Source of the DNA: a virus
Lineage: Duplodnaviria; Caudoviricetes
Reading direction: 5' to 3' (one strand)
IMG/VR virus record: IMGVR_UViG_3300024284_000007
Coordinates: 1 to 64,000 of that record
Length of the DNA: 64,000 nt
Numbering within the stretch: the first letter of the stretch is position 1; each line of letters starts with the position of its first letter. The position numbers were made by a program, and so were the translations under genes. This document shows, piece by piece, positions 19,780 to 55,207 of this stretch. Below the pieces are notes generated by a model, which did no database searches, was not told the DNA's origin, and saw only the letters and a program-made list of their open reading frames with translations.

Positions 19780-19917
19780 ATGATGATAGGGCATGTCTAC
19801 ATCAATGTCGTCTATGTCTGGGAAGCCTTTGCCATCGTGGCTGGGATACCTGCGGGGGTACTCCTCTACGCCATCAGGCGCAAGCGCCGGAAGCAGATCG
19901 GCGATTTATCATGGTGA
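19780..19917 (+). CDS. Single-TM microprotein with in-frame TTA two codons before the stop
   Basis: MMIGHVYINVVYVWEAFAIVAGIPAGVLLYAIRRKRRKQIGD-L(TTA)-SW*. Confidence 0.55.
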   Translation: MMIGHVYINVVYVWEAFAIVAGIPAGVLLYAIRRKRRKQIGDLSW

Positions 19918-20065
19918 CGTTCGTCATCATCGCAGCATTGAGTATCGCATTCATCCTCGTCATGTGGGGGATCGGGCGCAACCGAGACCGAGGAAGACGG
20001 TAATCCGCAGGTTCATCGAATGGATGAAGCTTTCTAAGCGGGACTACCGAGCCCGTGTTAAACTC

Positions 20066-20137
20066 CGGCTTATCGCGTAAGGGTGAGCGCGCCTGTCTCG
20101 GGGACAGGCAGACCAAGTTCGAGTCTTGGTAAGCCGA
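20066..20137 (+). tRNA. tRNA-Pro(CGG)
   Basis: C1-G72, A73, CCTGT-CTCGGGG-ACAGG. Confidence 0.85.
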
Positions 20138-20140
20138 CGA

Positions 20141-20211
20141 GAAGAGAGATGGGGGTTCGAATCCTCCCCTGCCTCATTGAGGCAGGTAGCTTAAGCGGCA
20201 GAGCGCTCTTC
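20141..20211 (+). tRNA. Circularly permuted tRNA gene (3' half precedes 5' half); identity unclear
   Basis: GAAGAG-AGAT-GGGGG TTCGAAT CCTCC-CCTGCCTC-att-GAGGCAGG-TA-GCTT AAGCGGCA GAGC-G-CTCTTC; all four stems pair. Confidence 0.75.
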
Positions 20212-20217
20212 GGTAAT

Positions 20218-20288
20218 CCGGATGTAGTGAAATGGCATCACGCCGTGCCTGGGACGCGGTAGCGGAGGTCCGATTCCTCCCATCTGGA
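20218..20288 (+). tRNA. tRNA-Pro(TGG)
   Basis: CCGGATG/CATCTGG, CCGTG-CCTGGGA-CGCGG. Confidence 0.8.
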
Positions 20289-20450
20289 CGAGGGTTTGCT
20301 GGACGGCATGACCCTACTATGATGCGCATGAAATGATCGGTGCCCGGGAAGAGGACAAGGCCGAACCCGTGCACAGGCTGCGGATGCTGCGCCGTCCCGG
20401 CAGTCCATCTTGAGGAACAGTGATCCCGTATTCGCGTACGGGATCACCTA

Positions 20451-20524
20451 GGTCACTTAGCTCAGCTGGCAAGAGCGCCCGGTTGAAGCCCGGGAGGTCT
20501 TCTGTTCGATTCAGAAAGTGATCA
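20451..20524 (+). tRNA. tRNA-Phe(GAA)
   Basis: Canonical cloverleaf. Confidence 0.92.
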
Positions 20525-20543
20525 CGGCACTATCCCTCTTCAT

Positions 20544-20615
20544 GCGGGTATGGTCTAATGGCTATGACCTCAGCCTTCCAAGCTGATGGTGCGAGTTCGA
20601 TTCTCGCTACCCGTT
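20544..20615 (+). tRNA. tRNA-Gly(TCC)
   Basis: Canonical, U73. Confidence 0.92.
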
Positions 20616-20768
20616 CGCAGTAAGAAAGGATTGCCGTGAAATTCTCACGATGCAAGACTTGCAAGAGGCTGATATCCCGGAAAACCGCCCAGCGCTATTC
20701 CGGGATATGCGGTAAATGCTTCAGGAAAAGTATCTCTTCTCTCGCGAGAAAAATGATTGGTTGACTAT

Positions 20769-20840
20769 CAGGCTGTAGTTCAGCGGGAAGAACGTCGGCT
20801 CGGGGAGCCGGAGGTCGCAGGTTCGAGCCCTGCCAGCTTG
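20769..20840 (+). tRNA. tRNA-Pro-type gene with a 6-nt anticodon loop (TCGGGA)
   Basis: CAGGCTG/CAGCTTG, A73, TCGGC/GCCGG stem. Confidence 0.65.
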
Positions 20841-21023
20841 ACGTGAGAACATGCGTGCACTGCAAGCGCAGCCGCTTCCGGCGGCTGATGGTCCGGTCTA
20901 GCCTGTCCGGGAGCAAGTGGCGCTGCAGGAACGTGCAGGCTTGCGCCAGGTACATAACAAGGAAAAAATAGCAATCCGAGGAGATCATCATGCGAAAGCG
21001 GAACCAGCCCCGAAAGCCTTAAT

Positions 21024-21095
21024 GCTCCGGTAGCTCAGTGGCAGAGCGGCTGGCTCTTAACCAGCGCGTCGCGAGTCCGATTCTCGCTCGGAGTA
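21024..21095 (+). tRNA. tRNA-Lys(CTT)
   Basis: GCTGG-CTCTTAA-CCAGC. Confidence 0.92.
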
Positions 21096-21207
21096 CGAAG
21101 GAAGAATGATGGCTGTATGCCCTAACTGCGGCGGTACCAAGAAACCCGGCAAGACCTGCCCGAGATGCGGAGCAAATCATGAGTAAACCGGACCTGCTTA
21201 AAGGCAG

Positions 21208-21279
21208 GCTCCCCTAGCATAGTGGCCATGCGTTCGACTTTTAATCGAAAAGAGCGGGGTTCGATTCCCCGGGGGAGTA
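21208..21279 (+). tRNA. tRNA-Lys(TTT)
   Basis: TTCGA-CTTTTAA-TCGAA. Confidence 0.9.
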
Positions 21280-21436
21280 CAGTAAGCGAATGCCGGAAAT
21301 AATGTGCCCGAAATGCAAGGGAACGAAGAGATACCGGGGACGCCCGTGCAAGAAGTGCTCGCCGAAGGATAAGGACGGGAAGATCACCGGTCTCCCGCTC
21401 GGAAAGATCTGGGTAGACATGGGCAGCGGAAGCTAA

Positions 21437-21511
21437 GGGCGTCTACGCCAACAGGCAGCAGCGGCTAGCTTCAAAAGCTAGTGGTTCAGGGTTCGAATCC
21501 CTGGTCGCCTA
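21437..21511 (+). tRNA. tRNA-Leu(CAA), short variable region
   Basis: CTAGC-TTCAAAA-GCTAG, A73. Confidence 0.8.
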
Positions 21512-21524
21512 CGGAAGTAAATGA

Positions 21525-21597
21525 TCTCGGGTGGGATGCGGGCATCCCAGCATGGCTCTGAACCATGCCCCCGTTGGTTCGAATCCAGCCCCGAGAG
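21525..21597 (+). tRNA. tRNA-Gln(CTG)
   Basis: U1-A72, G73, CATGG-CTCTGAA-CCATG. Confidence 0.88.
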
Positions 21598-21631
21598 CGA
21601 TCCCAGCTTGCCGGAAGCTAGCTGGGCTCAT

Positions 21632-21700
21632 GCCTGTCGCGTCGGCACGCATCTGTCCCTCGTAGCGACAGATCACCCGGATCGTCCCCGGGGACGGGCT
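21632..21700 (+). tRNA. tRNA-Thr(CGT) with non-canonical cloverleaf
   Basis: GCCTGTC/GACGGGC, U73; GCGT-CGGC-ACGC; ATCTGTCC-CTCGTAG-CGACAGAT; CCCGG-ATCGTCC-CCGGG. Confidence 0.75.
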
Positions 21701-21711
21701 CGGAAGGGAGA

Positions 21712-21993
21712 ATGATGGATACACGCGAACTGATCCTGAAGACCGTGGAGGACCTGGCTGAGGACTTCCTCGGGATAGACCGCCTGGAAGACGCCGAGCT
21801 GCCTCCTGGGGCGACCGAGCGGGCGGTCCTGGACTGGGAGACCAGCATCGGGGAGATTGCTCTCCGGTTTGAGCAGAAGCTCCGCGAGCTGATCCCCGTA
21901 CCCGTCGATGAGCCTGGTGCCCACGTCGGGCAGGCTGGTCATGTCGTCCGCGCGAAGAGGATCCATGCCCAGGTGGAGCAGATGCAGGGATAG
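21712..21993 (+). CDS. Hypothetical protein
   Basis: GGAG RBS; fills the gap between tRNAs. Confidence 0.6.
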   Translation: MMDTRELILKTVEDLAEDFLGIDRLEDAELPPGATERAVLDWETSIGEIALRFEQKLRELIPVPVDEPGAHVGQAGHVVRAKRIHAQVEQMQG

Positions 21994-22000
21994 GTTTCAT

Positions 22001-22074
22001 GCCCAGGTAGCCCAACGGCAGGAGGCACCACCTTGAGGAGGTGGGCAGTACGAGTTCGAATCTCGTTCTGGGTA
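22001..22074 (+). tRNA. tRNA-Leu(GAG), short variable region
   Basis: CCACC-TTGAGGA-GGTGG, A73. Confidence 0.85.
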
Positions 22075-22079
22075 CGGAA

Positions 22080-22146
22080 CGCCGGGAACGCAGCCACGGC
22101 TGGCGTGGTCGGCAGACGATCAGGGTTCGAGTCCTGATCCCGGCGG
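22080..22146 (+). ncRNA. tRNA-like element of unclear identity
   Basis: 8-bp CGCCGGGA/TCCCGGCG stem, T-arm with GTTCGAGT, no canonical anticodon arm. Confidence 0.5.
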
Positions 22147-22150
22147 GAGC

Positions 22151-22218
22151 GCCGCTACTCACGGCTGTGGCTCCGGTCTTGTACACCGGGTGAGACGGGT
22201 CGGCACCGTCTGGCGGCT
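22151..22218 (+). tRNA. tRNA-Thr(TGT), minimal D-arm, T-loop GTCGGCA
   Basis: GCCGCTA/TGGCGGC, CCGGT-CTTGTAC-ACCGG. Confidence 0.75.
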
Positions 22219-22361
22219 CGGGAGGAAGGAAGAAAGATGACGCTCATTTTCACCCTGAAATGCTGCGCTCCTCGCGGAGAGCCGTGCCGCTGCGCTAATC
22301 CGTGCCGCAGAGGACGATTCGGACGCCGCTGCAGGTGTCCCGGATGTCATTAGAGTTTCAT

Positions 22362-22433
22362 TGCGGGGTGGGGTAACGGCAGCCCGCGTGCCTTTGAAGC
22401 ACTGTAGTGCGCGTCCGAATCGCGCCCCCGCAG
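22362..22433 (+). tRNA. tRNA-Gln(TTG)
   Basis: U1-A72, G73, loop CTTTGAA. Confidence 0.85.
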
Positions 22434-22651
22434 CAGGTTGTCTCAAGTGAACGGGAAGGTACATGCCACGGCACGGAGGAAACACGCTGCGCCCTTGCAG
22501 GCGGCATCACAAGAAGATGTCGTCAGGCTCTAAAGGCAACGGCGGGGACGCCAAGATCCGCAAGGCGAAGCAGGTCGCCGGGGAGGCGGCTCACCCCAAG
22601 CCCCGGAAGAAGAACGGCAAGGAAGAGTTCGAGCCTACGTGAGCAGGTCAT

Positions 22652-22720
22652 GCCCTTCGGACCGGCGTCCACGCCTCCTTGGTATGGAGGCGTAGCCCGG
22701 ATCGTCCCCGGGGAAGGGCT
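22652..22720 (+). tRNA. tRNA-Thr(GGT) with non-canonical cloverleaf
   Basis: GCCCTTC/GAAGGGC, U73; GGAC-CGGC-GTCC; ACGCCTCC-TTGGTAT-GGAGGCGT; CCCGG-ATCGTCC-CCGGG. Confidence 0.8.
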
Positions 22721-22804
22721 CAAGAGATGCCGGTCATCCATCTCCTTACCGCGAGTCACCAGGTAGCCAGTCCTGTTCAGGCGTCCAGCGGGTATGATGA
22801 CCAT

Positions 22805-22877
22805 GTGACCGTGGTGTCAGCGGTTAGCATCTGACCTTGCCAAGGTCAGGGGGCGAGTTCGAGTCTCGTCGGTCACT
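22805..22877 (+). tRNA. tRNA-Gly(GCC)
   Basis: TGACC-TTGCCAA-GGTCA. Confidence 0.9.
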
Positions 22878-23002
22878 CTAGCTAGTAGCCCAGCATGAAG
22901 CTTATGGCGACATGCCCCTGAGGGGAAGCGCGGACTGCTAGCCTAGGCGGGACAACACCGGGCGTCGGCGCACCCACAAAGCCGTCCGCTGGTGTCCCTC
23001 AT

Positions 23003-23073
23003 GCGGCTATGGTGTAGAGGTAACATGCGATCTTCCCAAGCTCGTGTCGCGGGTCCGATTCCCGCTAGCCGCT
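23003..23073 (+). tRNA. tRNA-Gly(CCC)
   Basis: Loop TTCCCAA, U73. Confidence 0.88.
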
Positions 23074-23222
23074 CGGAGATGTGCACGATCTCCCGGGAAA
23101 GCTCAGCGCAATACCAGGCAGTCGATTGCGGCAGCCCACTCGCCTGTGAGCGTGCTGAAGTGAAAAGGAATGGGAGCTGTCGTCGCTATTCCCGGAAGCG
23201 GAAGTCAGGGATTTCCCGTCAT

Positions 23223-23307
23223 GCGCGGGTGGTGTAACGGTAGCCACGCACGGCTCAGACCCGTGTGGTCCGGAAGGATCGTGAGGGTTCAACTCCCTCC
23301 TCGCGTA
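23223..23307 (+). tRNA. tRNA-Leu(CAG), long variable arm
   Basis: CACGG-CTCAGAC-CCGTG. Confidence 0.9.
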
Positions 23308-23308
23308 C

Positions 23309-23704
23309 GTGGATAACGTCAAGCAGGTCATCGTCATCAGGAGAGACCTGAAAATGCGCAGGGGCAAGGAGATTGCCCAGGGTGCTCACGCTTCGATCGC
23401 CTGGCTGACTAACAGGATCACGAATTCTTCCAATGCTCTCATGTCGGTTACGCCAGCGGATTTCTCTGCAGCGGAATGGGAATGGCTTCGGGGGAATTTC
23501 CGCAAGATCTGCTGCGTTGTCAGTTCCGAGCAGGAGCTGCTCGACCTGTGTGATGCAGCGAAGGAAGCGGATCTGATCTATGAGCTGATCGAGGACTCTG
23601 GACTGACTGAGTTCAGCGGGGTTCCCACGTTCACCGCAGCGGCATTCGGTCCTGACTTCGATGAGAACCTGGATCCCATTACGGGTCATCTGGTACTCTA
23701 CTGA
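23309..23704 (+). CDS. pth2: Peptidyl-tRNA hydrolase, Pth2 family
   Basis: KQVIVIRRDLKMRRGKEIAQGAHAS...KIC.VV...L...I.DSGLTEF..PT.TA.AFGP...D.ITGHL.LY. Confidence 0.92.
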   Translation: MDNVKQVIVIRRDLKMRRGKEIAQGAHASIAWLTNRITNSSNALMSVTPADFSAAEWEWLRGNFRKICCVVSSEQELLDLCDAAKEADLIYELIEDSGLTEFSGVPTFTAAAFGPDFDENLDPITGHLVLY

Positions 23705-23793
23705 CATGCTCCAAGAAGAAGTCGGCAGGGCGTCGCTGGCGTGACCCTGCTAGTCCGGGCGGATAATAAGTCCTGGGGTAGAGCGCCAGCAAT

Positions 23794-23877
23794 GGAGAGT
23801 GAACGAGCCAGGGTGCTCGGCCTTCCTGCTAAGAAGTGCGCGGGTGATACCGTGGATTTCGAGTATCCCGCTCTCCT
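23794..23877 (+). tRNA. tRNA-Ser(GCT)
   Basis: GGAGAGT/GCTCTCC, loop CTGCTAA, long variable arm. Confidence 0.75.
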
Positions 23878-23878
23878 C

Positions 23879-24223
23879 ATGGCTAAGGAACTCGCGTTCT
23901 CGGTAACCCGCAAGGACCTGAAGATCGAGACTTTTTCTGCGGGCGGACCGGGAGGACAGCATCAGAACACCTCCAACACGGCGGTGCGCATCACGCACCT
24001 CGCGTCAGGGGCGTCAGGAGTGGCGAGAGACTCCCGCAGCCAGCATCAGAACATGAAGAACGCCCTGCGCCGCATGGCGGAATCGGGTAAGTTCAGGGTG
24101 TGGGTGAACCGGCAGCTGCTGGGGAATACCGAGCCGCCGGAGATTGCTGTACAGCGGCAGATGCACCCCTCGAACCTGCTGATCATGGGCAGGGAGGAGG
24201 GGAGATGGAAGATCATCGACTAG
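23879..24223 (+). CDS. Class I release-factor GGQ-domain protein (ArfB/PrfH-like, domain 3 only)
   Basis: IETFSAGGPGGQHQNTSNTAVRITHLASG...DSRSQHQN. Confidence 0.88.
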   Translation: MAKELAFSVTRKDLKIETFSAGGPGGQHQNTSNTAVRITHLASGASGVARDSRSQHQNMKNALRRMAESGKFRVWVNRQLLGNTEPPEIAVQRQMHPSNLLIMGREEGRWKIID

Positions 24224-24232
24224 GAAGAGACG

Positions 24233-24659
24233 ATGAAGAGATTCATGAAAGCAGGACCTCATCCTGCCGTGGGGATCCCGGTCATGACCCTCTGCGGGAT
24301 CGGGGGGATCCTGGAGCTGAGCGACAAGGGTCATTTCACCTTGTTCGGCAAGGTCATCCAGTCGCATGACGCCGCTGTCTTCGCGGTCATCGCCAGCGCC
24401 GGGTACCTTCTGCTGGAGCTGGTCTTGCTAGCCAGGAGGCACTGACATGGGGTGGCTTGCCTTCCTGGTCGTAAGCTCTGTCGCGGTCTTCGCGCTGATG
24501 AAATACGCGGGCAGCAATCGCAGGGCGGCGAAAGTGATCAAGGGGAAAGGGCGCTCATCTCCCCGGATCTGCCCTGACTGTCGCGAGCCGGCGGGCAAAT
24601 GCCAGTACCTGCGCCGTCAGGCTGAGCACCCTGGGGGCATGCTCGGGAAGAAGAAGTAA
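24233..24659 (+). CDS. Two small membrane proteins (24233..24445, 24447..24659)
   Basis: Hydrophobic segments; RBS present. Confidence 0.55.
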
Positions 24660-24664
24660 CTCAC

Positions 24665-24751
24665 GGAGAGTTCGCCTAGAGGCTTAGGGCGCTGCCTTGG
24701 AAAGGCAGTAAGGTGAAATATCCTTCACGAGTTCGAATCTCGTACTCTCCT
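24665..24751 (+). tRNA. tRNA-Ser(GGA)
   Basis: CTGCC-TTGGAAA-GGCAG, long variable arm. Confidence 0.88.
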
Positions 24752-24790
24752 CCGGGGATTAAGCCAGTCAGGGAGCTGGCATCCCCTTCT

Positions 24791-24872
24791 CGGGAGCATG
24801 CTACCGGCGTAGCGCTCCGCCTCGAAAGCGGATACGGGGTAACACCCGGGGGATCGACACCTCTGCTCTCGG
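24791..24872 (+). tRNA. tRNA-Ser(CGA), reduced D-arm, T-loop ATCGACA
   Basis: TCCGC-CTCGAAA-GCGGA, variable arm, G73. Confidence 0.72.
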
Positions 24873-24893
24873 CGCAGAATAGAAAGAAGGAAC

Positions 24894-25136
24894 ATGCCCG
24901 ACAGGAAGAAATGCCCGGCCTGCGGAACGATGATGCACCGGTTCATGAACCCTGAGCGGTATGTCTGCCCTAAAGAGAACACTCACGCAGCTCTTCTCGC
25001 CGAGAAGAGAAGGGCTGAAGGGCGTTCCCGGGGCGGAAAAGCCGCTCAGGCTAAGCGAGCTGCGTCTGGTCGCCAGCGGGAATGGGCGCGGATACTCGGG
25101 AAGAGATTCGGGGGGAAGAACAAGAAGAGCAAGTAA
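24894..25136 (+). CDS. Small basic Zn-ribbon protein
   Basis: CPACG...YVCP; RBS AAGGA. Confidence 0.55.
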   Translation: MPDRKKCPACGTMMHRFMNPERYVCPKENTHAALLAEKRRAEGRSRGGKAAQAKRAASGRQREWARILGKRFGGKNKKSK

Positions 25137-25142
25137 CATCAT

Positions 25143-25216
25143 GGGCATCAGTTCACCTGGTCGGTGGACTCACGCTGATAACGTGATCGCGCAGGGTTCG
25201 ATTCCCTGGGTGCCTA
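25143..25216 (+). tRNA. tRNA-Ile(GAT)
   Basis: TCACG-CTGATAA-CGTGA. Confidence 0.85.
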
Positions 25217-25217
25217 C

Positions 25218-25290
25218 GCCGCAGTAGCCTAACGGTCAGGGCAACTGTCTTATGAACAGCAGATTCCAGGTTCAAGTCCTGGCTGCGGTA
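25218..25290 (+). tRNA. tRNA with UAU anticodon (nominal Ile) on a Leu-like body
   Basis: Loop CTTATGA (G37), GCCGCAG/CTGCGGT, A73, D-region GCCTAACGGTCAGGGC. Confidence 0.75.
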
Positions 25291-25415
25291 CGGGAGGTAT
25301 CATGCTGACAGGAAGCTGGAATCCTCACGACGAGGATGACGAGAATCTCGTGCTGGATGTCGAGTGGGTCTTCATTCGCGGAGGAAAGTACGTTTACTCG
25401 GTGAGAGCCGAGAAT

Positions 25416-25489
25416 GCCCCTGTAGCTTAAAGGACAAAGCGGCTGGCTTCTATCCGGTCCAGATCCGGGTTCGAATCCTGGCAGGGGTG
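25416..25489 (+). tRNA. tRNA-Arg(TCT)
   Basis: Loop CTTCTAT, canonical arms. Confidence 0.85.
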
Positions 25490-25490
25490 C

Positions 25491-25562
25491 GCTCCATTGG
25501 GGAAACGGTATCCCGCCAGCCCCTCAAGCTGGAGATCCCCGGGTCGGCACCGGGATGGAGCA
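25491..25562 (+). tRNA. tRNA-Glu(CTC), T-loop GTCGGCA
   Basis: CCAGC-CCCTCAA-GCTGG. Confidence 0.75.
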
Positions 25563-25724
25563 CGGAGAAAAGATGAGAGAAAGAATGTCCAGCCAGTGTA
25601 CCGCTGCCCCAAAGGCGGTCTTCATCACTGGAAGCGCACTATCACGATTACCGCGATCCTGCGCCTGCGCATCTTCCACGCGCGGTGCACGAAATGCGGC
25701 GGGTATCCTCAGAAGAGGTAACAT

Positions 25725-25796
25725 GCTCTCATCGTCTATGGGATAGGATCTGATCCTTTCAAGATCGGGAACGGAGTTCGAGTCTCCGTGGGAGCA
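25725..25796 (+). tRNA. tRNA-Glu(TTC)
   Basis: TGATC-CTTTCAA-GATCG. Confidence 0.88.
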
Positions 25797-25811
25797 CGGG
25801 AAGGGAAGAAG

Positions 25812-26012
25812 ATGCCGCTCAGCGAGGATGAGCAGGATGCCATGGCAGCCAACTGCCCCTGGTGCTGGGCGGGGATGGGTGAGCGCTGCAAGAGCCGCAG
25901 CGGGAAAGAGCGCCTGCACCCGCATAAACGGCGGATCGCGCGCGCGCGGCGGCGCGGAGGTCTCGGCGGGGTGGGCAGGATGCTGCTGGCGGCGAGAAGG
26001 GGAAGCAAGTGA
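25812..26012 (+). CDS. Small phage zinc-finger protein
   Basis: CPWCWAGMGERC.....H..R. Confidence 0.6.
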   Translation: MPLSEDEQDAMAANCPWCWAGMGERCKSRSGKERLHPHKRRIARARRRGGLGGVGRMLLAARRGSK

Positions 26013-26028
26013 GTAACGGGAAATTCTA

Positions 26029-26065
26029 GCCTGCATGGTGAACTGGCTATCACATCATGTGATAA
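26029..26065 (+). pseudogene. Orphan tRNA 5' half
   Basis: GCCTGCA-TG-GTGA ACTGGCTA TCAC-A-TCATG..., no T-arm or 3' acceptor strand. Confidence 0.45.
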
Positions 26066-26074
26066 ACTAGTCGT

Positions 26075-26147
26075 GGCGACTAAGCTCACTGGTGTGAGCG
26101 GCACCCTCATAAAGTGCACGAGGTGGGTCCGATTCCCGCAGTCGCTA
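26075..26147 (+). tRNA. tRNA-Met/Ile2(CAT), elongator type
   Basis: GCACC-CTCATAA-AGTGC. Confidence 0.85.
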
Positions 26148-26148
26148 C

Positions 26149-26580
26149 GTGGGGAAACCGTATGATCCTGAATATTACCGAAAGTGGCAAGAGGAACGCC
26201 GCATTAAGTTCCTGGCGATAGCTAAAGAACGCCTTGGAGGATGCTGTGTTCGTTGTGGTACTACCGAAAATCTTCAGTTCGATCATATTATTCCAGGTTC
26301 CAGGATTCGTGCGATATCATCAGCAACTAATTGGTCGCTAGCTCGCTTTCTTGCCGAAGTGGACAAATGTCAGCTTCTTTGCGATGCGCATCATCGTGAA
26401 AAATCAAAGGAATGCGGAGAGCAAGGCGGAGGCTGGAATCGTATCGATAACCCAGAACACGGAACAGAGATTTGCTATACACGTGGGTGTCGTTGCGAAC
26501 CATGTCGTCAAGCCCGGCACGACGTGCGGGTAAGACGAGGTGAACTCAATGGCACGCGAGGACATTACAAAAAATCTTGA
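26149..26580 (+). CDS. HNH endonuclease (tRNA-array paralog 1)
   Basis: LGGCCVRCG...LQFDHI.P...EVDKCQLLC..HH; low GC. Confidence 0.88.
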   Translation: MGKPYDPEYYRKWQEERRIKFLAIAKERLGGCCVRCGTTENLQFDHIIPGSRIRAISSATNWSLARFLAEVDKCQLLCDAHHREKSKECGEQGGGWNRIDNPEHGTEICYTRGCRCEPCRQARHDVRVRRGELNGTRGHYKKS

Positions 26581-26606
26581 CATCTCCTCTTCGGAGGAGG
26601 TAAGGT
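26577..26606 (+). promoter_or_regulatory. sigma70-type promoter
   Basis: TTGACA-18-TAAGGT just upstream of tRNA-fMet. Confidence 0.75.
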
Positions 26607-26617
26607 AGATCTACCGA

Positions 26618-26691
26618 CGCGGAGTAGAGCAGCTTGGCAGCTCGGTGGGCTCATAACCCTCAGGTCGCGGGTTCGAATCCCGTCTCCGCTA
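26618..26691 (+). tRNA. Initiator tRNA-fMet(CAT)
   Basis: C1:U72 mismatch, GGG/CCC anticodon-stem pairs. Confidence 0.92.
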
Positions 26692-26721
26692 CCGGTCCCG
26701 ACAGGACCCTAAAGAGTCTAT

Positions 26722-26794
26722 TGGCCTCTAGCTTAACTGGCAGAGTCGCTCCCTGTTAAGGAGTTAGGTCCCGGTTCGAATCCGGGGGGGTCAG
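26722..26794 (+). tRNA. tRNA-Asn(GTT)
   Basis: U1-A72, G73, GCTCC-CTGTTAA-GGAGT. Confidence 0.88.
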
Positions 26795-26919
26795 CGGGAT
26801 GCAGGTGCACGCGATAAACTGGCTTACCTGCGCCTGGCAGATCAGCGCCCTACCCAGGGGGTGCCTCAGACGGAGACAGCGGGTCACGTACGTCCCAGTC
26901 CCCGCCGAGCTGATCACGT

Positions 26920-26975
26920 GGTTCTGTAGCTTAGCTGGTCTAAAGCACCGCCCTGTCAAGGCGGAGGTCAACGGG
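26920..26975 (+). pseudogene. Truncated tRNA-Asp(GTC): T-arm and 3' acceptor strand lost, directly upstream of an HNH gene
   Basis: Intact D-arm and CCGCC-CTGTCAA-GGCGG, then sequence diverges. Confidence 0.75.
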
Positions 26976-26991
26976 CTGATAAGATGACCGG

Positions 26992-27408
26992 GTGCCTTAC
27001 AGGGATCCTGATCGCCAGCGCGAGTATCAACGTCAGTGGGTAGCTAGTCGGCGTGCTGCATGGTTCAAGGATAAATCTTGCGTGATATGCGGGAGTGCCG
27101 AAGATTTGGAACTGGATCATCTTGATCCGGGCAAGAAAGTAAGCCATCGCATCTGGTCATGGTCAGCAACGCGACGCGAAGCTGAACTGCTTAAATGCAG
27201 GGTTCTTTGCGGTAGTCACCATAAAGAAAAATCTGCACTGGAGCATGCAAAAGGTATCGCGAACGGGACGGCGAAGCTAACTGAAGAGCAAGTCCGAGAA
27301 ATTCGTTCTTCAGGAATGGGTCACCGACCCGCCGCTAGGGTGTATGATGTAAATGAAAAAACCATCCGGTTGATCCGGAAGGGTAAAATCTGGGGTTCCG
27401 TGGTGTAA
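26992..27408 (+). CDS. HNH endonuclease (paralog 2) with C-terminal HTH-like tail
   Basis: CVICGS...LELDHLDP...ELLKCRVLC..HH, AKLTEEQVREIR; last codons overlap tRNA-Asp. Confidence 0.88.
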   Translation: MPYRDPDRQREYQRQWVASRRAAWFKDKSCVICGSAEDLELDHLDPGKKVSHRIWSWSATRREAELLKCRVLCGSHHKEKSALEHAKGIANGTAKLTEEQVREIRSSGMGHRPAARVYDVNEKTIRLIRKGKIWGSVV

Positions 27409-27466
27409 AGGTTAGCACACTACCCTGTCAAGGTAGAGGTGGGGGTTCGACTTCCCCTCGGTTCCG
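27394..27466 (+). tRNA. tRNA-Asp(GTC)
   Basis: CTACC-CTGTCAA-GGTAG; two U:U mismatches in the acceptor stem. Confidence 0.8.
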
Positions 27467-27568
27467 CTGGAGGCGTTCATGTGACGCTCATGTGGTACGA
27501 GATGCCGGAGACTGGCATCCTTCCCCGGGGGGTATCCTGGAGGGAGCTGGCGGATCACTGGCTGACCC

Positions 27569-27953
27569 ATGATCCGCTTCCGGAAAGAAGAGATGATGAT
27601 AAGCATGTGCGGGTCGAGTGTCCCGCTGTGGGAATTCCTGGCAGGGATACTGTGCGGACTGGTACTCTCGGTAACCCTGATACGCCTGTTCAAGCTGTAC
27701 GGGCTCCTGATCTGCCTGCTTATCATCATCGCGGGAGCTATCATTGTTAAGACAGCATTCATCAGGTACGGATGCTGACATGTCATTCGACGGGCAGGAC
27801 TATCCCTGGCTCCACCTGTGGATGCTGTCAGCAGTGCCGCTGGTGACATTCGCGGCAGGGGCGCTGTCCTGTAAGATCCTGGGGAAGTGGACCTGGCTGC
27901 TCATCGGGCTGGGAGTCCTGCTGCTGGTCATCCTGCGGGCAGCTGGAGGGTAG
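27569..27953 (+). CDS. Two small two-TM proteins (about 27569..27778 and 27780..27953)
   Basis: Strongly hydrophobic ORFs; starts uncertain. Confidence 0.55.
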
Positions 27954-28067
27954 ATGGCGATAAACAGGAAGTGCCTGGCATGCAGGTGGAACAGCCGCCT
28001 GCTGCGCTGCAGCTGCACCTACCGGTGCTCTGCGCTATGGTGCAAGGGCAGGGGAGTGAAAATATAG

Positions 28068-28140
28068 GGACGCTTAGCTCAGCGGTATGAGCGCTGCCCT
28101 GACACGGCAGAGGGCGGCGGTTCGATCCCGTCAGCGTTCA
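28068..28140 (+). tRNA. tRNA-Val(GAC)
   Basis: CTGCC-CTGACAC-GGCAG. Confidence 0.92.
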
Positions 28141-28143
28141 CTC

Positions 28144-28377
28144 GGCTGGAAGAAAAGGCTGCTAGCGAGCCGGATCTTCCCGCGCCGGGGATAGAGACCC
28201 GGCTCCGGCGGCAGACGTGCCGTGCGTTCCATGAGCACATGGGCAGCTGGACCAAGGGGATGAATGGTTCGACCGGGCTGCAAGACCGCATGCGGAACAG
28301 CCCGGGACCAGGGCTCGGTACCCTGCATCTCCACTGCCGGGGGTTAAGCGGCGCAAGCCTCAAACCCCCGGCGTCCA
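28144..28377 (+). ncRNA. Unassigned highly structured RNA between tRNA-Val and tRNA-Arg
   Basis: Nested perfect stems (CCGGGCTG/CAGCCCGG, GCCGGGGGTT/AACCCCCGGC, GCCGGA/TCCGGC, GGGGATG/CATCTCC) and a GCAA tetraloop. Confidence 0.55.
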
Positions 28378-28449
28378 GCCCCCATGGTGAAAGGGATATC
28401 ATGGGAGATTACGAATCTCCCGGTGCCTGTTCGAGTCAGGCTGGGGGTG
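28378..28449 (+). tRNA. tRNA-Arg(ACG)
   Basis: GGAGA-TTACGAA-TCTCC. Confidence 0.88.
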
Positions 28450-28463
28450 CGGAAAGGAAGAGA

Positions 28464-28670
28464 ATGAAGGCACTGAAGCCGCGTCCGGCAAAACGCGGGT
28501 ACGTCATCATCGGGGGACTGTCAGTACTGGCGGTGTGGGCATGCACGCAGGCTCTCCACGTCACTCCGCTGGTAGCCCTGGTCATCGTCGTCGCGGGCAT
28601 AATCCTGCTCGCGGGAGCATTCTCCCTGCGTTCCCGGGGAATTAACCGGGAGGTGAAACGCAGGAGATAA
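28464..28670 (+). CDS. Small two-TM protein
   Basis: MKALKPRPAKRGYVIIGGLSVLAVW...; RBS AAGGAAG. Confidence 0.55.
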   Translation: MKALKPRPAKRGYVIIGGLSVLAVWACTQALHVTPLVALVIVVAGIILLAGAFSLRSRGINREVKRRR

Positions 28671-28741
28671 GGGCGGCTCGTCCAATGGGAGGGCCTCTGC
28701 GTTACGAGCAGAAGACAAGGGTTCGATTCCTTTGCCGCCTA
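28671..28741 (+). tRNA. tRNA-Val(TAC)
   Basis: TCTGC-GTTACGA-GCAGA. Confidence 0.85.
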
Positions 28742-28742
28742 C

Positions 28743-28896
28743 GGGAATGAGAGAGGGTACGGCAGGGCTACTCAGGGAGTCCGGGTGCGTGCCATCCAGA
28801 GGAGTCCGAAGACGGCAGGACGGTTCCTGAGTCTGTCCTGCTTGCTTGACGGATCGCTCTCACCGAGCCCAGGGTCGTGGGCAGCTCTCATTCTCC
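28743..28896 (+). ncRNA. Unassigned structured RNA between tRNA-Val and tRNA-His
   Basis: Closing stem GAATGAGAG/CTCTCATTC and inner ACTCAGGGA/TTCCTGAGT, GTCC/GGAC, GGGTG/CATCC. Confidence 0.5.
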
Positions 28897-28898
28897 AT

Positions 28899-28973
28899 GG
28901 CGGATATAGCTCAATGGCAGAGCGCTGGCTTGTGGTGCCGGTAATCCGAGTTCAATCCTCGGTATTCGCCCCA
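28899..28973 (+). tRNA. tRNA-His(GTG)
   Basis: G-1:C73, loop TTGTGGT, encoded CCA. Confidence 0.92.
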
Positions 28974-29221
28974 CGCGATCATCCGGAAAGGGTATCATGA
29001 AGATATTCAGGCGCAGGAAGAAGCGCAGTCAGGTGAAATGCTTCATCTGCCATACTCGTACGCCCCCAGAGGGCGCAGCTGTCTGCGCGCACTGCCTGAA
29101 GCACAATATCAGGATGAGGAGTACGCAATGAGAAGTTATTATCCGGGTCAGCATAGCTGTCACTGACCCTGCCGGATCTTGCACTGGGATGCTTTGTGGT
29201 AAGGTATGATATAGTAAAACT

Positions 29222-29818: not shown

Positions 29819-29973
29819 TCACCGAAGGTAAGACTAGAGCTAGCGTCACTCTCGGATTCTATGGTGAATTGCGCGCTTCCGGAACTGGTGCAATCGTCGG
29901 GAAAGATGTTGGCGATACTGAGCAGCAGGTGATCCTCAAGCTTATCGGTACTGAGGATATCCAAAAGCTCTAA
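29743..29973 (+). CDS. Hypothetical low-GC protein
   Basis: 76-aa ORF. Confidence 0.5.
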   Translation: MYNTANKYEFPNNTEVWTYEIIAYMITEGKTRASVTLGFYGELRASGTGAIVGKDVGDTEQQVILKLIGTEDIQKL

Positions 29974-29985
29974 GGGGAACGTGCA

Positions 29986-30014
29986 GCAGGTTCGATTCCT
30001 GCATCCGGTACCCA
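29986..30014 (+). pseudogene. Orphan tRNA 3' half (T-arm plus acceptor strand)
   Basis: GCAGG TTCGATT CCTGC-ATCCGGT-A-CCCA with no D or anticodon arm upstream. Confidence 0.6.
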
Positions 30015-30299
30015 TTCGCCGATTAAGGACCGACATGAAGACCATTGCCATTCTCCCTTCCGAATGCCATACGATGATGCTCGGCATGCGGCTGTGCGTG
30101 GTATGCTGCCATGCATGCCGGAGGGGATTCCGGTGCGACTGCTGCAGGAGGATGAGAGAAGATGCTTAACGAGCTAGCCGCGACAGGGCATTCCGCCGGG
30201 TTCACTATCGGCGCGATAGTGCTCGGGGCGATCTGCGTCATCATCATCGTGGTGCTGCTGGTCATGACCCGCAAGCGGCGCGGGAAGAAATAAAGTAAT

Positions 30300-51285: not shown

Positions 51286-52276
51286 CTAGATCGTGCGCTT
51301 GTACGGATGGCAGAGCAGTTCCGCCTCCGTGGTGAGCCCTACGACGTCGCCGCCAGTGCTCTGGGAGTGACCGCCGATGTCGTGGATGGTGGTCGTGGTG
51401 GCACCCCTGGTCAGCGCCTCGGCGGTGGCGAAGTGGATGCACGCCTGCTCAATACTGGCGGGCAGGGTGGTGATGATCGTGCCCGCCACGTGCGGGTAGA
51501 CCAGCGGCGCGGACAGGCTCAGGGTCCCCGGTCCCGCCGCCGCCGACGCGGAGTTCGCGTGGACGGTCTCCTGCTGTCCGGAGTCCTTGATCACCCCGGT
51601 AGCCCCCGTGGTGCCCTGGTAGCTGGTGATGCCCCAGCCGGTGACGTCGCTGACGGACAGGGTGGTCGCGCCAGCGAGAGCGCTGGAGGTGATCTCCGCG
51701 TGCGGGAAGCCGTTGATGTAGCTCACCTGGATGACATAGCCGTTGCGCCCGAAGCACCAGTTGATGAATCCCGGTCCGATGATGATCGCCTGCCCGCCGT
51801 AGGCGTCGGTGGCAGGCGCGACCGAGTTGAAGATCCCGAACGGGGGGTACTCCGGCTCCGCCCATCCCGTGGGCAAGGTGGTCCACTGCCGGGGCCACGT
51901 GTTGTTGGGGCACACCTGGACCTGGGTGACTTCCAGGATGGGGAAGCGGGAGAGGATAGCCCTGGCATTGGACCCGGTATTGTTCCAGTAGGGCGTGCGG
52001 GTCGCTCCGCCTGCGCCCGGTCCGACCGTCACCCGGAAATCCGGACCCCGGAGCACCTCGATATCGACGGTGGCTCTCAGGATCTGGTTGCAATAGCTAT
52101 CGACCTTGGCAGTGGCTCTCGCGCACATGTTCCACCACTCGGCTTCGTTCTGCGCGGGAGTGATGTCATCTCCTACGGGAATGCTGGTCCAGTCCTAAAT
52201 CGATACCCGTAGGAGCAGTCAGGAGCGTCACCGGGGAAATGTACGGTGCTGTGATCAGCGGCATCGGGGTAGTCAT
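51286..52276 (-). CDS. Head-tail adaptor, interrupted by a 7-nt coding gap after codon 26 (GAT TTA G GAC)
   Basis: RBS GGAGG and ATGA-coupled start at 52276 give MTTPMPLITAPYISPVTLLTAPTGID; the other frame continues DWTSIP...MCARATAKVDSYCNQ.LRAT.D.E. Confidence 0.75.
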
Positions 52277-52473
52277 CGGGCATCACCTCCCCTCTTTCTC
52301 TCGCATTTGGTGCAGATCCACGCCTCAAGCGCACTGTCCCATACGGAATGCCTCGGGCAGATGTCATCACCGCAAGTGTCCACGGCGCACTGAGCCCACG
52401 GAGCAGCAGTCCTGGCGACACGTCCCCTCTTGGGACCTCCACACCTTCTACAGAGGCCAGGTGCTCTTGACAT
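52273..52473 (-). CDS. Small Cys-rich (Zn-binding) protein
   Basis: CRRC, C....C...IC..H, CTKC. Confidence 0.55.
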   Translation of the reverse strand: MSRAPGLCRRCGGPKRGRVARTAAPWAQCAVDTCGDDICPRHSVWDSALEAWICTKCERKRGGDAR

Positions 52474-52483
52474 GCACCACCTC

Positions 52484-52870
52484 TTAGCTTTTTTCCAGGT
52501 ATGCAGCAAGAGCCCGCAACCTGTCCGGATCGTCGTGAGCCCATCCCAGAAGCCTATTGCAGGTATTGCACAAGATGCCCCTGACGCAGTTCTCACATCC
52601 AAATCTTCCAGGGCAGCAAGAATGATCATGGTCCACGCAGAGCTTTTCAAAAGAACCGCAGACTTGACAGCCTTGCGACGCTGCGTACCCACGCCAGTAG
52701 GCTCTGGTCTTACCGGCGTGGGTTCTCGCATTATCGTGAGGGCGCGTAGCTTCAAGGTAAATCTCATGCGCAGCGCAGCATTCTTCGCATCGGCAGCCAC
52801 GCTTCTTGTATGTAGCGTTCTTGCCGTGACTCCAGACGCCGTTTTTGCAGCCTTCCCGGTGATTGCTCAT
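52484..52870 (-). CDS. Endonuclease VII family (free-standing)
   Basis: CQVCG...LCVDHDH.CC...C..CVRGILC..CNRLLG..DD. Confidence 0.88.
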   Translation of the reverse strand: MSNHREGCKNGVWSHGKNATYKKRGCRCEECCAAHEIYLEATRPHDNARTHAGKTRAYWRGYAASQGCQVCGSFEKLCVDHDHSCCPGRFGCENCVRGILCNTCNRLLGWAHDDPDRLRALAAYLEKS

Positions 52871-52926
52871 CAGGGATACCCTGAATTATCTTGCCTGCAC
52901 AACCCCGGGGCTCGGCTCATAGGCTC

Positions 52927-53304
52927 CTACGTCTTGTACTCGTAATCCGCGAGGGTGTCCTGGGAAACGGGGGTGAATGTCACTCTCGGAGGCCAGCTCC
53001 ACTGACCTTCCTCATCACCCTCATGCCGGGAAGTCGCCCAGAACAGGTCATTGCCGTCGAGGTGGACCTGGAGGTTAACGACGTCATGCGGGTTTCCCGG
53101 GAATATCCTGACGACTATCGCGGGATAAACCTCACCCGGGCGAACGGGATTCCCGAAATGCCCGACGTGACCGGTAGCCCCGGGATTGCCGCCCTCGCCG
53201 TAAGTGCGGGTGAAAGTCATGTAGTCATGACGCCTGCGGTTGATGTCCTGGGCGTCAGCCTCTGCGATCCGGTACTGGACGATGCGTCCTGCCGTGGGAG
53301 TCAT
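52927..53304 (-). CDS. Hypothetical protein
   Basis: PTAGRIVQY...PAIVVR...VNLQVHLDG...WSWPPR. Confidence 0.6.
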   Translation of the reverse strand: MTPTAGRIVQYRIAEADAQDINRRRHDYMTFTRTYGEGGNPGATGHVGHFGNPVRPGEVYPAIVVRIFPGNPHDVVNLQVHLDGNDLFWATSRHEGDEEGQWSWPPRVTFTPVSQDTLADYEYKT

Positions 53305-54002
53305 ACTGCCACCGGAGTAGTCTCCAGGCGCTCGATGAGCGCGGCTTTGCTGCCCTTGTCGGAGATGCCCGCCGTACGGCACATCTTCTTCAGGGTGGCG
53401 ACATGAAGCGCCGTCAGCGAGATAACGCTGTCGTGACCCGGCTCGAACGGGATACTGTCCGCCGGAGCTGTCCCTATTTCCTTCTGCTTCGCCATGGAGA
53501 TGCCGCACTCAGCGCAGAACTTGGCTCCGGCGGCGTTGTCGTGACCGGTGGCGCAGACGGTCTTGCCCTCGATGAAATGAGAGGGAAGCTCGCGCTTCAT
53601 CATCCACTCGGTCTCGAAGGGGATCTCGGTGCCCGCCGCCCGCAGCGCTGCCAGCGCCTGGATCATCTGGATCTGGTGGGTGGCACGCTCGGTGCGGACC
53701 GCGTTCGTGGCCTGCTCGTCGGGGGTCAGCGGGATGGACTCGGGAGTGGAGGACCAGTGCGGGTCCGCATCGGCGACGCGCTCCTGCTTGGCGGGGATGC
53801 CGAGCTTGGGGTCGCCCGGGGTGGTCTTGAGGATCTGCGGCTTGCGGGCTCCCCGGAGGTAAGCCTCGCAAGAAGGGCAGTCCAGCTCCCAGTCTTTCGC
53901 GGGAGCGCCTCTCACTACGGGTCGGCTGTGCGAGTCGCCGCAGCCTCCGCTCGTGGAGGGAATGGATACGCTCATGAGGTCAGAGCGTGCGTACAGGGGC
54001 AT
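53301..54002 (-). CDS. Zn-ribbon plus SAP-domain protein
   Basis: CATGHDN...KFCAECG; LHVATLKKMC...GIS..GSKAALIERL. Confidence 0.65.
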   Translation of the reverse strand: MPLYARSDLMSVSIPSTSGGCGDSHSRPVVRGAPAKDWELDCPSCEAYLRGARKPQILKTTPGDPKLGIPAKQERVADADPHWSSTPESIPLTPDEQATNAVRTERATHQIQMIQALAALRAAGTEIPFETEWMMKRELPSHFIEGKTVCATGHDNAAGAKFCAECGISMAKQKEIGTAPADSIPFEPGHDSVISLTALHVATLKKMCRTAGISDKGSKAALIERLETTPVAV

Positions 54003-54013
54003 TGGCAGTCCTT

Positions 54014-54340
54014 TCAGGGAACATATTGCCCGCTCGGTCGTTCGCGGGACATCTGGGATTCCGGGACGGTCTCCGACCCGCAAGAAGGGCAGGTTCTCGT
54101 CCAGGAATGGTGGATGGTATTGCTCGGGCAGTCCGGGCACCATCTTCCTTCAGGTCCTCTTCTCACGAAATGCTTCTCCGGTCCGGCATCGACAAGTCCT
54201 GCCTGGGCGTAGTTGTTGCCCTTCAGCGCCGCCATGTGATGATCGGCGACATCCACGAACGTTCCCGGCTTGGCGACATAGCGGGTCCCGTCATCCGCCT
54301 TGAATCCCATGCAGCCAGGGGGGAGGTTCACTCTGGTCAT
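54014..54340 (-). CDS. Hypothetical protein with C-terminal Zn ribbon
   Basis: CPDC...CPSC. Confidence 0.6.
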   Translation of the reverse strand: MTRVNLPPGCMGFKADDGTRYVAKPGTFVDVADHHMAALKGNNYAQAGLVDAGPEKHFVRRGPEGRWCPDCPSNTIHHSWTRTCPSCGSETVPESQMSRERPSGQYVP

Positions 54341-54347
54341 TGCGCTC

Positions 54348-54629
54348 CTATGTGCTGATGATGTAGCTGACGGTCGCGGTCTGCCCGTTCTGGGTGACGC
54401 AGAAATTCAGCCCGCCGCCCTTGGAGATCGCAGTGGTCACGAACGACGTGGGAAGCGCATTAGGCGTCAGCAGGAACCCCGTGGAGGAGGTGACTCCCGT
54501 GGCGGGTCCTACCGCCACGGTCGCGGGACCGATGTTCGCCAGGACGATGCTGCACAGTCCGGCAGGGACGGTGCACAGAGCTGTGGGGACAGTGTTGTCA
54601 TAGGACAGCTGCCCGGTGATGATGCTCAT
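54348..54629 (-). CDS. Small beta-rich virion-type paralog A
   Basis: GQ...PT.LCTVP.G...NIG..V.VG...VTSSTGF. Confidence 0.7.
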   Translation of the reverse strand: MSIITGQLSYDNTVPTALCTVPAGLCSIVLANIGPATVAVGPATGVTSSTGFLLTPNALPTSFVTTAISKGGGLNFCVTQNGQTATVSYIIST

Positions 54630-55207
54630 CAGTTCCCGGTAGAGATAATGAAGCAGAATGACGATGCGGTGCCGTTGCCGGTCGTGGCGTAGTACGTAGC
54701 CCCGCCGACCGAGTTGTAGGCTTCCTGGCTGAGCGGGGTCACCGGGACCGGCATGCCGCTCGCGGCGGTGACCCTCGCCGATGTCCCGAGGTAGACCGCC
54801 TGGGGGGTGGTCGGCTGGTAGAGGGTGAAGTTGCTCAGCCCGGCGGGGAGGATGAATACAGTAACCGTGCTGTTAGCAGGCACCGTTGCCGTTCCCATGA
54901 TCACGGACATGATTTTTCTCTGTAACGCCGTAGCAACATAAGTAACTGTCGTACTATTGCCCGTAGCTGCAATGGCATACAGGTCCTGTCCGGGATGCAG
55001 GTGCACCTGAAATCCGTAAGGAGTAATAGTGCTATACGGATTCCCCTGGAAGAACCCCGTTGATGATGTGACGCCGGAGTCACCAAAATAGATTGCACAT
55101 TGCGCGTACAGTGCACTTACTGTAACTTCGGTGATGTGTTCAGAATCTGCGGCGACAATCAAGGCAGGAGCAGAATCCGTTATACTTACCTGACCATAAG
55201 AAAACAT
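54629..55207 (-). CDS. Two small paralogs (B 54629..54910; C ends at TTA 54923-54925) joined in one ORF
   Basis: Each half aligns with paralogs A and D; TTA sits where paralog A has its stop; own ATG at 54910. Confidence 0.7.
   Translation of the reverse strand: MFSYGQVSITDSAPALIVAADSEHITEVTVSALYAQCAIYFGDSGVTSSTGFFQGNPYSTITPYGFQVHLHPGQDLYAIAATGNSTTVTYVATALQRKIMSVIMGTATVPANSTVTVFILPAGLSNFTLYQPTTPQAVYLGTSARVTAASGMPVPVTPLSQEAYNSVGGATYYATTGNGTASSFCFIISTGN

Follow-up and report, generated by a model that had tools for sequence, protein, structure and literature searches.

Streptomyces phages usually lack the codon UUA altogether (PMC10732093). In phage phiHau3, the large terminase gene carries two 10-nt inserts that begin with UUA (PMC10732093; Antonov et al. 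2023, RNA Biol 20:926), similar inserts occur in the terminases of two prophages, StrepC.1 and one of S. catenulae (7 nt in S. catenulae), and Smith et al. 2013 proposed that UUA-mediated bypassing acts as a sensor of the host bldA tRNA (PMC10732093). Mass spectrometry in E. coli, with UAA replacing UUA, found the phiHau3 bypass junction, and in the upstream open reading frame (ORF) of Streptomyces adpA a UUA lies 5-6 nt ahead of the main start (PMC10732093). Here we examine TTA codons in a 64,000-nt stretch of DNA (the window) from an uncultured tailed soil phage (Duplodnaviria; Caudoviricetes), which forms the first 64 kb of the 87,379-bp single-contig virus record IMGVR_UViG_3300024284_000007 (guanine-cytosine content (GC) 61.5%). 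Comparison with relatives argues strongly that TTA is not an ordinary codon in this clade and that it marks a translation jump or a translation end. Positions are those of the window, and positions beyond it are given as genome positions.

The locus resembles phiHau3 in that an essential gene for the virion or for packaging is broken by a short insert, with an in-frame UUA right after the take-off codon. In both, the two flanks adjoin in homologues, UUA is otherwise absent, the host is (here most likely) an actinobacterium, and the insert lengths overlap at 7-10 nt. It differs in the genes concerned, which here encode an adaptor-like virion protein, a portal-MuF C-terminal domain and a glycosyltransferase rather than a terminase, and in lineage, since the phage belongs to an uncultured clade whose T4-type large terminase is at most 36% identical to that of any isolated phage. 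Furthermore, insert lengths here range from 5 to 11 nt and include an in-frame 9-nt insert, one gene is polymorphic at two positions, and TTA also replaces stop codons.

Other systems share parts of this arrangement. The bypass of T4 gene 60 was reportedly tied by Bonocora et al. in 2011 to the MobA homing endonuclease, as a mobile cassette. As in gene 60, the codon after the take-off codon is slow to decode, some of our inserts have matching take-off and landing codons, and a homing nuclease lies beside the interrupted gene (at five of eight insert loci here). However, the gaps here are 5-11 nt rather than 50 nt, no conserved take-off hairpin was found, and the trigger would be a sense codon without a usable tRNA rather than UAG. 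Kano, Osawa and colleagues are said to have described, in the early 1990s, unassigned codons in high-GC Micrococcus luteus, and Lang et al. reportedly described in 2014 bypassing elements of 27-55 nt in Magnusiomyces mitochondria; in these systems too a tRNA-less codon halts ribosomes or bypass elements begin with unreadable or stop codons, although our gaps are far shorter than those of Magnusiomyces. Finally, as in the adpA upstream ORF, some TTAs stand 2-3 codons before a stop and abut or overlap the next start (19906 in our record, TTATG junctions in relatives), but in phage genes rather than in a host regulator and with a spacing of 0-18 nt.

TTA-led inserts in conserved genes

The first interrupted gene lies in the virion module. 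It matches no Pfam or PHROG family; the first-pass annotation labelled it a head-tail adaptor, and we call it adaptor-like.

51286-52191, minus strand: 3′ piece of the adaptor-like gene, 65-84% identical to relatives and open from 52194
52192-52198, minus strand: 7-nt TTA-led insert (TTA G GAC), removal of which restores collinearity with homologues
52199-52276, minus strand: 5′ piece, 26 codons from ATG 52276 to GAT, with a strong GGAGGTGA ribosome-binding site ahead

The putative take-off codon is GAT (52199-52201), the candidate landing codon GAC (52192-52194), and the codon at which translation would resume TGG (52189-52191). The 3′ piece continues in the +1 frame, where the first start is an internal ATG at 52128. 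Twelve IMG/VR relatives were fetched for comparison (handles with L denote loci and those with G denote genomes). The N-terminal peptide is kept in all twelve, in frame with the remainder wherever the insert is absent. Six relatives are uninterrupted, with a single frame through ...ATC GAC TGG... (APTGIDW), versus seven interrupted homologues, our own included, whose insert lies at the site seen in our record or three codons upstream.

Our record, L011 and L012: GAT[TTAG]GAC TGG
L006: GAT[TTAATGC]GAC TGG
L002: GAT[TTAATCTGGC]TGG
L008 (= G002): ACT[TT]ACC GGC
L009 (= G003): ACA[TTATCGAAATT]GGA

Every one of these inserts is headed by an in-frame TTA, and its deletion recovers the conserved protein. 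In a tree of the adaptor-like protein, our record (with insert) is sister to L001 (without), and L006 (with insert) is nested in the nearly identical, uninterrupted L003, L005 and L007. Because insert presence flips between sister sequences, the inserts must be gained or lost quickly. A scan of the four genomes (ours, G001, G002 and G003) for further N-terminal gaps recovered the adaptor-like gene alone.

Two further inserts lie in other genes.

Genome 64813-64817, minus strand: 5-nt insert in the portal-MuF C-terminal domain gene, ...AGC TAC[TTAAC]ATC GAA...
G003 (L031-L037), position 71266: in-frame 9-nt insert in a GT4 glycosyltransferase gene, AGT[TTAAAATGC]GGA, reading TTA AAA TGC

At the portal-MuF site (the second site), eight relatives are continuous, reading LP(N/A)Y(I/L)..., versus TAC[TTAAC]ATC in our record. 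The GT4 insert lies 15 codons into the gene and is missing from the orthologues in our record and in G001. To the 7-nt and 5-nt inserts of our record, relatives add five (5, 9, 10, 10 and 11 nt), so that rejoining the frames takes a +1 shift, a −1 shift or none over lengths of 5, 5, 7, 9, 10, 10 and 11 nt. In all seven distinct inserts an in-frame UUA stands immediately 3′ of the last shared codon, and three of them have synonymous take-off and landing codons (GAT/GAC twice, ACT/ACC). The second site alone shows a hairpin, immediately upstream of its take-off codon (folding z −2.2). Given the uninterrupted homologues, the TTA-led inserts would have to be skipped.

The base that follows TTA is a purine in five of the seven inserts, which yields TAG or TAA in the +1 frame.

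Census of TTA in coding sequence

A manual count in the first-pass annotation had given four in-frame TTAs, confined to gene ends and junctions. All four are real as placed (19906, 29651, 52198 and 54925), and two more exist, at 2034 and, outside the window, at genome 64817. Two of the six lead the frame-breaking inserts, two stand at positions where paralogues have their stops, and two precede a stop by 2-3 codons; the confinement to frame breaks and gene ends thus holds for every TTA. Genes were called with a codon-usage model, and the calling was repeated with TTA scored neutral. The 61 confident genes of our record (17,343 codons) contain no TTA, against expectations of 43 from position-specific base frequencies, 19 from the share of A-ending codons after T, and 0.5 from CTA/CTG scaling. 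This absence is not decisive by itself, because the CTA/CTG-scaled null expects so few. More telling are nine low-GC genes (1,822 codons; GC at third codon positions (GC3) 0.37-0.65), among them nrdJ, three HNH genes and two for endonuclease VII, in which AAA and GAA are used as often as AAG and GAG. They have no internal TTA either, against 11-13 expected from composition and only about 1 under the CTA/CTG-based null.

We extended the search for ordinary internal TTAs to the relatives. Among 96,526 distinct aligned codons from the four genomes and 17 loci there are four TTAs: two lie at insert sites, one belongs to a TTATG junction and one is an artefact, so that no ordinary sense codon is among them. 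A tblastn census of all ORFs was unusable because antisense and off-frame ORFs align too, and it was redone with confident proteins only. Ten TTAs fall within confident gene calls of the four genomes and none is a bona fide internal sense codon; after control rare codons (CTA, TGT, CAA, ATA and others), good coding signal follows in 68-88% of cases, but it follows no bona fide TTA.

Several candidates were discarded. The TTAs at 26931 and 28344 were rejected as internal codons, and the ORFs that hold them (26799-26987 and 28239-28670) as non-coding, because these ORFs cross a tRNA-like element and a tRNA-Arg. An apparent third frame break in our record, at genome 76989, is a false positive in which the TTA and a zinc-ribbon gene are in different frames. 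The earlier impression that TTA follows an Asp codon does not generalise, as Asp precedes TTA at about 3 of about 21 independent sites clade-wide.

TTA at gene ends

Four TTAs in the window stand at or near the ends of genes.

2032-2034, minus strand: TTA three codons before the stop of the small ORF 2020-2238 (weak gene call, score 9-13)
19906-19908, plus strand: TTA two codons before the stop of a 45-residue membrane-type ORF (19780-19917), TTA TCA TGG TGA
29651-29653, plus strand: TTA ending the HNH gene 29222-29650, 5 nt before a tRNA-Tyr gene (29659-29742)
54923-54925, minus strand: TTA ending an additional, AT-rich paralogue (54926-55207), 12 nt ahead of the following paralogue's ATG (54910)

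If TTA 29651 were decoded as Leu, the HNH ORF would extend 54 codons through the tRNA gene; two HNH paralogues in the tRNA array (143 and 138 residues, phrog_4234) stop at the aligned position (...WGSVV-stop versus ...WKHVD-TTA). The ORF 54629-55207 consists of two tandem copies of a family of about 94 residues, and paralogues of 93-95 residues have stop codons at the position of TTA 54925. The extra AT-rich copy is absent from L001, the closest relative. No homologues were found for ORF 2020-2238 or ORF 19780-19917; in the latter, the next small ORF has its ATG (19911) 2 nt after TTA 19906.

The same substitution recurs in relatives when the C-termini of orthologues are compared across the four genomes and the loci, a check that the first-pass annotation had suggested. 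In G003, TTA occupies the exact stop position of our glycosyltransferase gene 55517-56224 and of our gene 40179-40574 (86% identity), and in L010 and L002 it stands at the stop positions of paralogue and glycosyltransferase genes, where TTATG or TTA-N-GTG forms the junction to the next gene. TTA-ended genes are most numerous in G003, at about 8 of its 193 gene calls.

The base after TTA is a pyrimidine at 13 of 15 gene ends in our record and its relatives. The tandem paralogues have no assigned family; four of them separate the sugar genes from the adaptor-like gene (54348-55501, minus strand), and relatives have three.

tRNA array and translation genes

The tRNA genes of our record are largely gathered in one array, which also encodes two proteins related to translation.

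19491-30451, plus strand: tRNA array with 34 ARAGORN tRNAs, one Rfam tRNA(CAU) at 26075-26147 and three HNH genes
23309-23704, plus strand: Pth2-type peptidyl-tRNA hydrolase (PF01981 3.3e-26, 92 bits, curated cut-off 23; match over the full profile, 1-115 of 115)
23813-24223, plus strand: GGQ-domain-only release-factor-like protein (PF00472 5.9e-18; phrog_3122 1e-32)

With one further ARAGORN tRNA at 80 kb, beyond the array, the tools (ARAGORN and Rfam) give 35-36 tRNAs. This is fewer than the roughly 46 tRNA-like genes first reported, although an element called by neither tool, with a D-arm and a GUC (Asp) anticodon arm (about 26916-26985, plus strand), supports the impression of more. The array has Leu anticodons CAA, GAG and CAG and no others, and ARAGORN, Rfam and a scan for anticodon-arm-shaped hairpins with UAA found no tRNA-Leu(UAA) on the whole 87-kb record, in agreement with the first-pass annotation. 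Likewise, G001 and G002 (35 and 42 tRNAs) have neither Leu(UAA) nor Leu(UAG), yet almost every other U34 tRNA is present.

The hydrolase and the GGQ protein, both recognised from the sequence at the outset, sit side by side inside the array. The GGQ protein is 136-160 residues long (its ORF might begin at GTG 23741), matches PF00472 alone, has the GGQ motif and lacks codon-recognition domains. Among solved structures, its closest matches are PrfH and domain 3 of RF1 and RF2. It shares with ArfB (YaeJ) a catalytic domain of the GGQ-only kind, but its C-terminal 45 residues are not rich in lysine or arginine (ending ...GREEGRWKIID), so that it lacks the basic tail by which ArfB is defined and with which ArfB senses an empty mRNA channel. 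Its proper place is phrog_3122, 'RF-1 domain peptide chain release factor', rather than ArfB. Pth2 was found in the three records with tRNA arrays (ours, G001 and G002); G001 has no RF-1 domain match, and G003 has no RF-1 domain protein, no Pth2 and no tRNAs. The phage GGQ and Pth2 genes therefore track tRNA arrays rather than TTA sites.

Three low-GC HNH paralogues (phrog_4234) lie among the tRNA genes of the array (26149-26580, 26992-27408 and 29222-29650, plus strand).

Phage, relatives and neighbouring genes

The clade consists of uncultured phages of 87-135 kb, most with 35-42 tRNAs. G001 is 135 kb long (GC 57.7%, 35 tRNAs), G002 is complete at 130 kb (42 tRNAs), and G003 is complete at 128 kb (GC 68.7%, zero tRNAs). 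Searches by megablast and by tblastn against the phage collection returned no close annotated relatives. Our record has an overall GC3 of about 0.8; genes of its structural region lie on the minus strand (GC3 0.8-0.87), and long plus-strand ORFs there are shadows of minus-strand genes. Its contents include nrdJ, sugar-modifying enzymes and glycosyltransferases in the window, as well as a 1,499-residue portal-MuF-NUDIX fusion. A Ro60 homologue with TROVE and Ro60 vWA domains (genome 78291-79922, minus strand; L013:14291-15922) is also present, immediately upstream of which the first-pass annotation placed Y-RNA-like genes.

Two further genes bear on the host and on the origin of the inserts.

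12175-12363, minus strand: WhiB-family gene (PF02467, 72 bits)
52484-52870, minus strand: endonuclease VII-type (EndoVII) homing nuclease (PF02945 8.6e-14), about 290 nt upstream of the adaptor-like insert

Because the phage carries a WhiB-family gene, its host is most likely an actinobacterium: the WhiB profile matches only Corynebacterium among 14 control genomes, and one relative has two WhiB copies. A search of bacterial genome contigs with the terminase found no match that would name the host.

The EndoVII gene at 52484-52870 is peculiar to our record, and no relative has a homologue at this locus. More broadly, a homing nuclease lies within about 1.3 kb at five of eight insert-bearing loci (ours, with EndoVII at both sites; L011; L009/G003, of LAGLIDADG type; and, weakly, L006) and near none of five uninterrupted adaptor loci. 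This link is suggestive only, because in the uninterrupted L016-L019 lineage, too, an EndoVII-like gene stands about 220 nt away from the second site. Invasion by homing endonucleases beside the target gene is the probable origin of some inserts.

A small zinc-ribbon ORF (52273-52470, minus strand) directly upstream of the adaptor-like gene is kept in all twelve relatives, and nucleases, where present, are inserted to one or other side of it. At the second site, the endonuclease VII-type gene (genome 64974-65642, plus strand; L013:974-1642) lies on the opposite strand between the portal-MuF-NUDIX gene (65733-70232) and the detached C-terminal domain gene (64630-64937). Portal and C-terminal domain form a single 1,520-residue protein in G003 and are split without a nuclease in G002.

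Discussion

We think it likely that TTA is effectively unreadable in this clade and that ribosomes stall at it and then either hop or end there. The actinobacterial hosts would read UUA poorly or not at all; the phage tRNA sets omit tRNA-Leu(UAA), and that of the host is presumably scarce or regulated, like bldA in Streptomyces. Under such conditions TTA would be purged from ordinary sense positions and kept where a UUA stall in the A site is tolerated or used. At the inserts, the peptidyl-tRNA would leave the take-off codon, skip 5-11 nt and resume, giving the same protein as in uninterrupted relatives (phiHau3-type bypassing). At gene ends, TTA would replace the stop, often just before or overlapping the next start, and translation would presumably end by stalling and rescue. 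From the distribution of TTA and the comparison with relatives we infer stalling, the hop, chain release and any sensing of host state. The unreadability itself appears to be a property of the host, because G003 shows the TTA pattern without tRNAs, an RF-1 domain protein or Pth2.

Several observations weigh against this explanation. Landing codons match take-off codons poorly in four of seven inserts (GAT/GGC, TAC/AAC, ACA/ATT and AGT/TGC), and no conserved stimulatory RNA structure was found at the adaptor-gene inserts (folding z −1.5 to +0.8). The absence of TTA, taken alone, is compatible with strong bias under CTA/CTG scaling (expectation about 0.5-1). Two of the six TTA sites in our record are in small ORFs without homologues, and TTAs 2-3 codons before a stop, as well as TTATG overlaps, could be neutral by-products of the next gene's spacer or start. 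Our record is moreover only about 71% complete (CheckV).

Programmed +1 or −1 frameshifting at or after TTA, in which the ribosome decodes TTA or pauses there, slips one base and translates the remainder of the insert into 2-4 extra junction residues, would formally resolve every frame-breaking insert by a single shift after TTA (+1 for 7 and 10 nt, −1 for 5 and 11 nt), and frameshifting stimulated by rare codons is a well-established phenomenon (reviewed in PMC5009743). We nevertheless hold it to be unlikely. The required direction varies from site to site whereas the leading TTA is constant, one insert (9 nt) is in frame, and in our copy of the adaptor-like gene a stop (TAG) overlaps TTA in the +1 frame, which leaves a shift possible only once TTA has been decoded. 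The extra residues would fall inside the invariant motifs APTGIDW and LPxY(I/L)xxIA, where uninterrupted homologues show no length variation. In phiHau3, a +1-frame stop left recoding undiminished and mass spectrometry saw the bypass junction (PMC10732093). The variable shift, the constant TTA, the +1 stop in our adaptor-like gene and the invariant motifs together favour a hop over a single-base frameshift. A second rival invokes GC-driven bias, with the remaining TTAs being chance, decayed stops, pseudogenes or assembly errors. It can point to a GC of 61%, a GC3 of about 0.8, the rarity of TTG and a CTA/CTG-scaled prediction of less than one TTA in the confident genes. Yet it fits the data poorly and is scarcely tenable: each TTA lies at a frame break or gene end, where equally rare control codons do not, five different TTA-led inserts interrupt one gene across independent metagenome assemblies, low-GC genes avoid TTA too, and the broken genes are conserved virion genes with intact flanks.

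A true change of the code, in which a host release factor reads UUA as a dedicated stop and the inserts are gene-60-like bypasses, would account for TTA at orthologous and paralogous stops in several independent assemblies and for the G003 pattern without phage tRNAs or a release factor, which points to a host property. It also predicts the lack of sense TTAs in about 96,500 aligned codons, as does an unreadable codon equally. NCBI table 23 includes TTA as a stop. However, known release factors read UAA, UAG and UGA, and to our knowledge no bacterial sense-to-stop reassignment has been described. The share of genes that end in TTA is no more than a few per cent (about 8 of 193 in G003), the phage GGQ protein has no decoding domain, and a codon that is unreadable or short of tRNA accounts for the same data with no need of another factor; we judge a code change very improbable. 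The first-pass annotation had tentatively read UUA as a stall signal, for termination or hopping, at which phage hydrolases release the chains. The signal itself is supported by the inserts that would be skipped and by TTA at stop positions, whereas the assigned role of the hydrolases is not supported. The adjacency of the GGQ and Pth2 genes within the tRNA array and a catalytic domain without codon-recognition domains suit such a role, and a tag-free release factor would make TTA-ended genes productive. But G003, with the most TTA-ended genes and a TTA insert, has neither gene, G001 has Pth2 without an RF-1 domain match, both genes co-occur with tRNA arrays, and the GGQ protein, a member of the general phage family phrog_3122, is without ArfB's basic tail. 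Release of UUA-stalled chains by these two proteins is thus distinctly unlikely.

Stalling at an effectively unreadable TTA, followed by a hop or an end, has good support from the comparison and is the explanation that we carry forward. The inserts belong to a published type of UUA-led gap, a candidate for bypassing, and their length range, the polymorphic hotspot and the use of TTA for stop go beyond that report (PMC10732093). TTA standing where a stop codon would be expected seems to be new: our literature search found no description of a sense codon as a practical terminator in bacteria, and the present comparison suggests that a sense codon can act as one. UUA-mediated bypassing had rested on three terminase genes and one laboratory study, and the same signature now extends to further virion genes, in an actinophage clade that is uncultured and unrelated. 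The seven natural versions of the insert, switched on and off between sister phages, amount to a natural set of mutants from which the rules of short hops could be worked out. For annotation, gene callers can be expected to split or over-extend TTA genes in high-GC phages unless TTA is treated specially.

Host-state sensing has been put forward as a hypothesis for phiHau3-type UUA gaps (PMC10732093), and by analogy UUA might serve this clade as conditional punctuation. Its reading would be set by the availability of the host tRNA-Leu(UAA), virion assembly would be gated by host growth state, and the GGQ protein and Pth2 would provide tag-free release in the tRNA-rich members, an extension that we regard as doubtful. 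If it were true, a missing tRNA would let hops over the inserts give functional virion proteins and let TTA-terminated genes end, whereas with the tRNA present the same messages would yield truncated or extended products.

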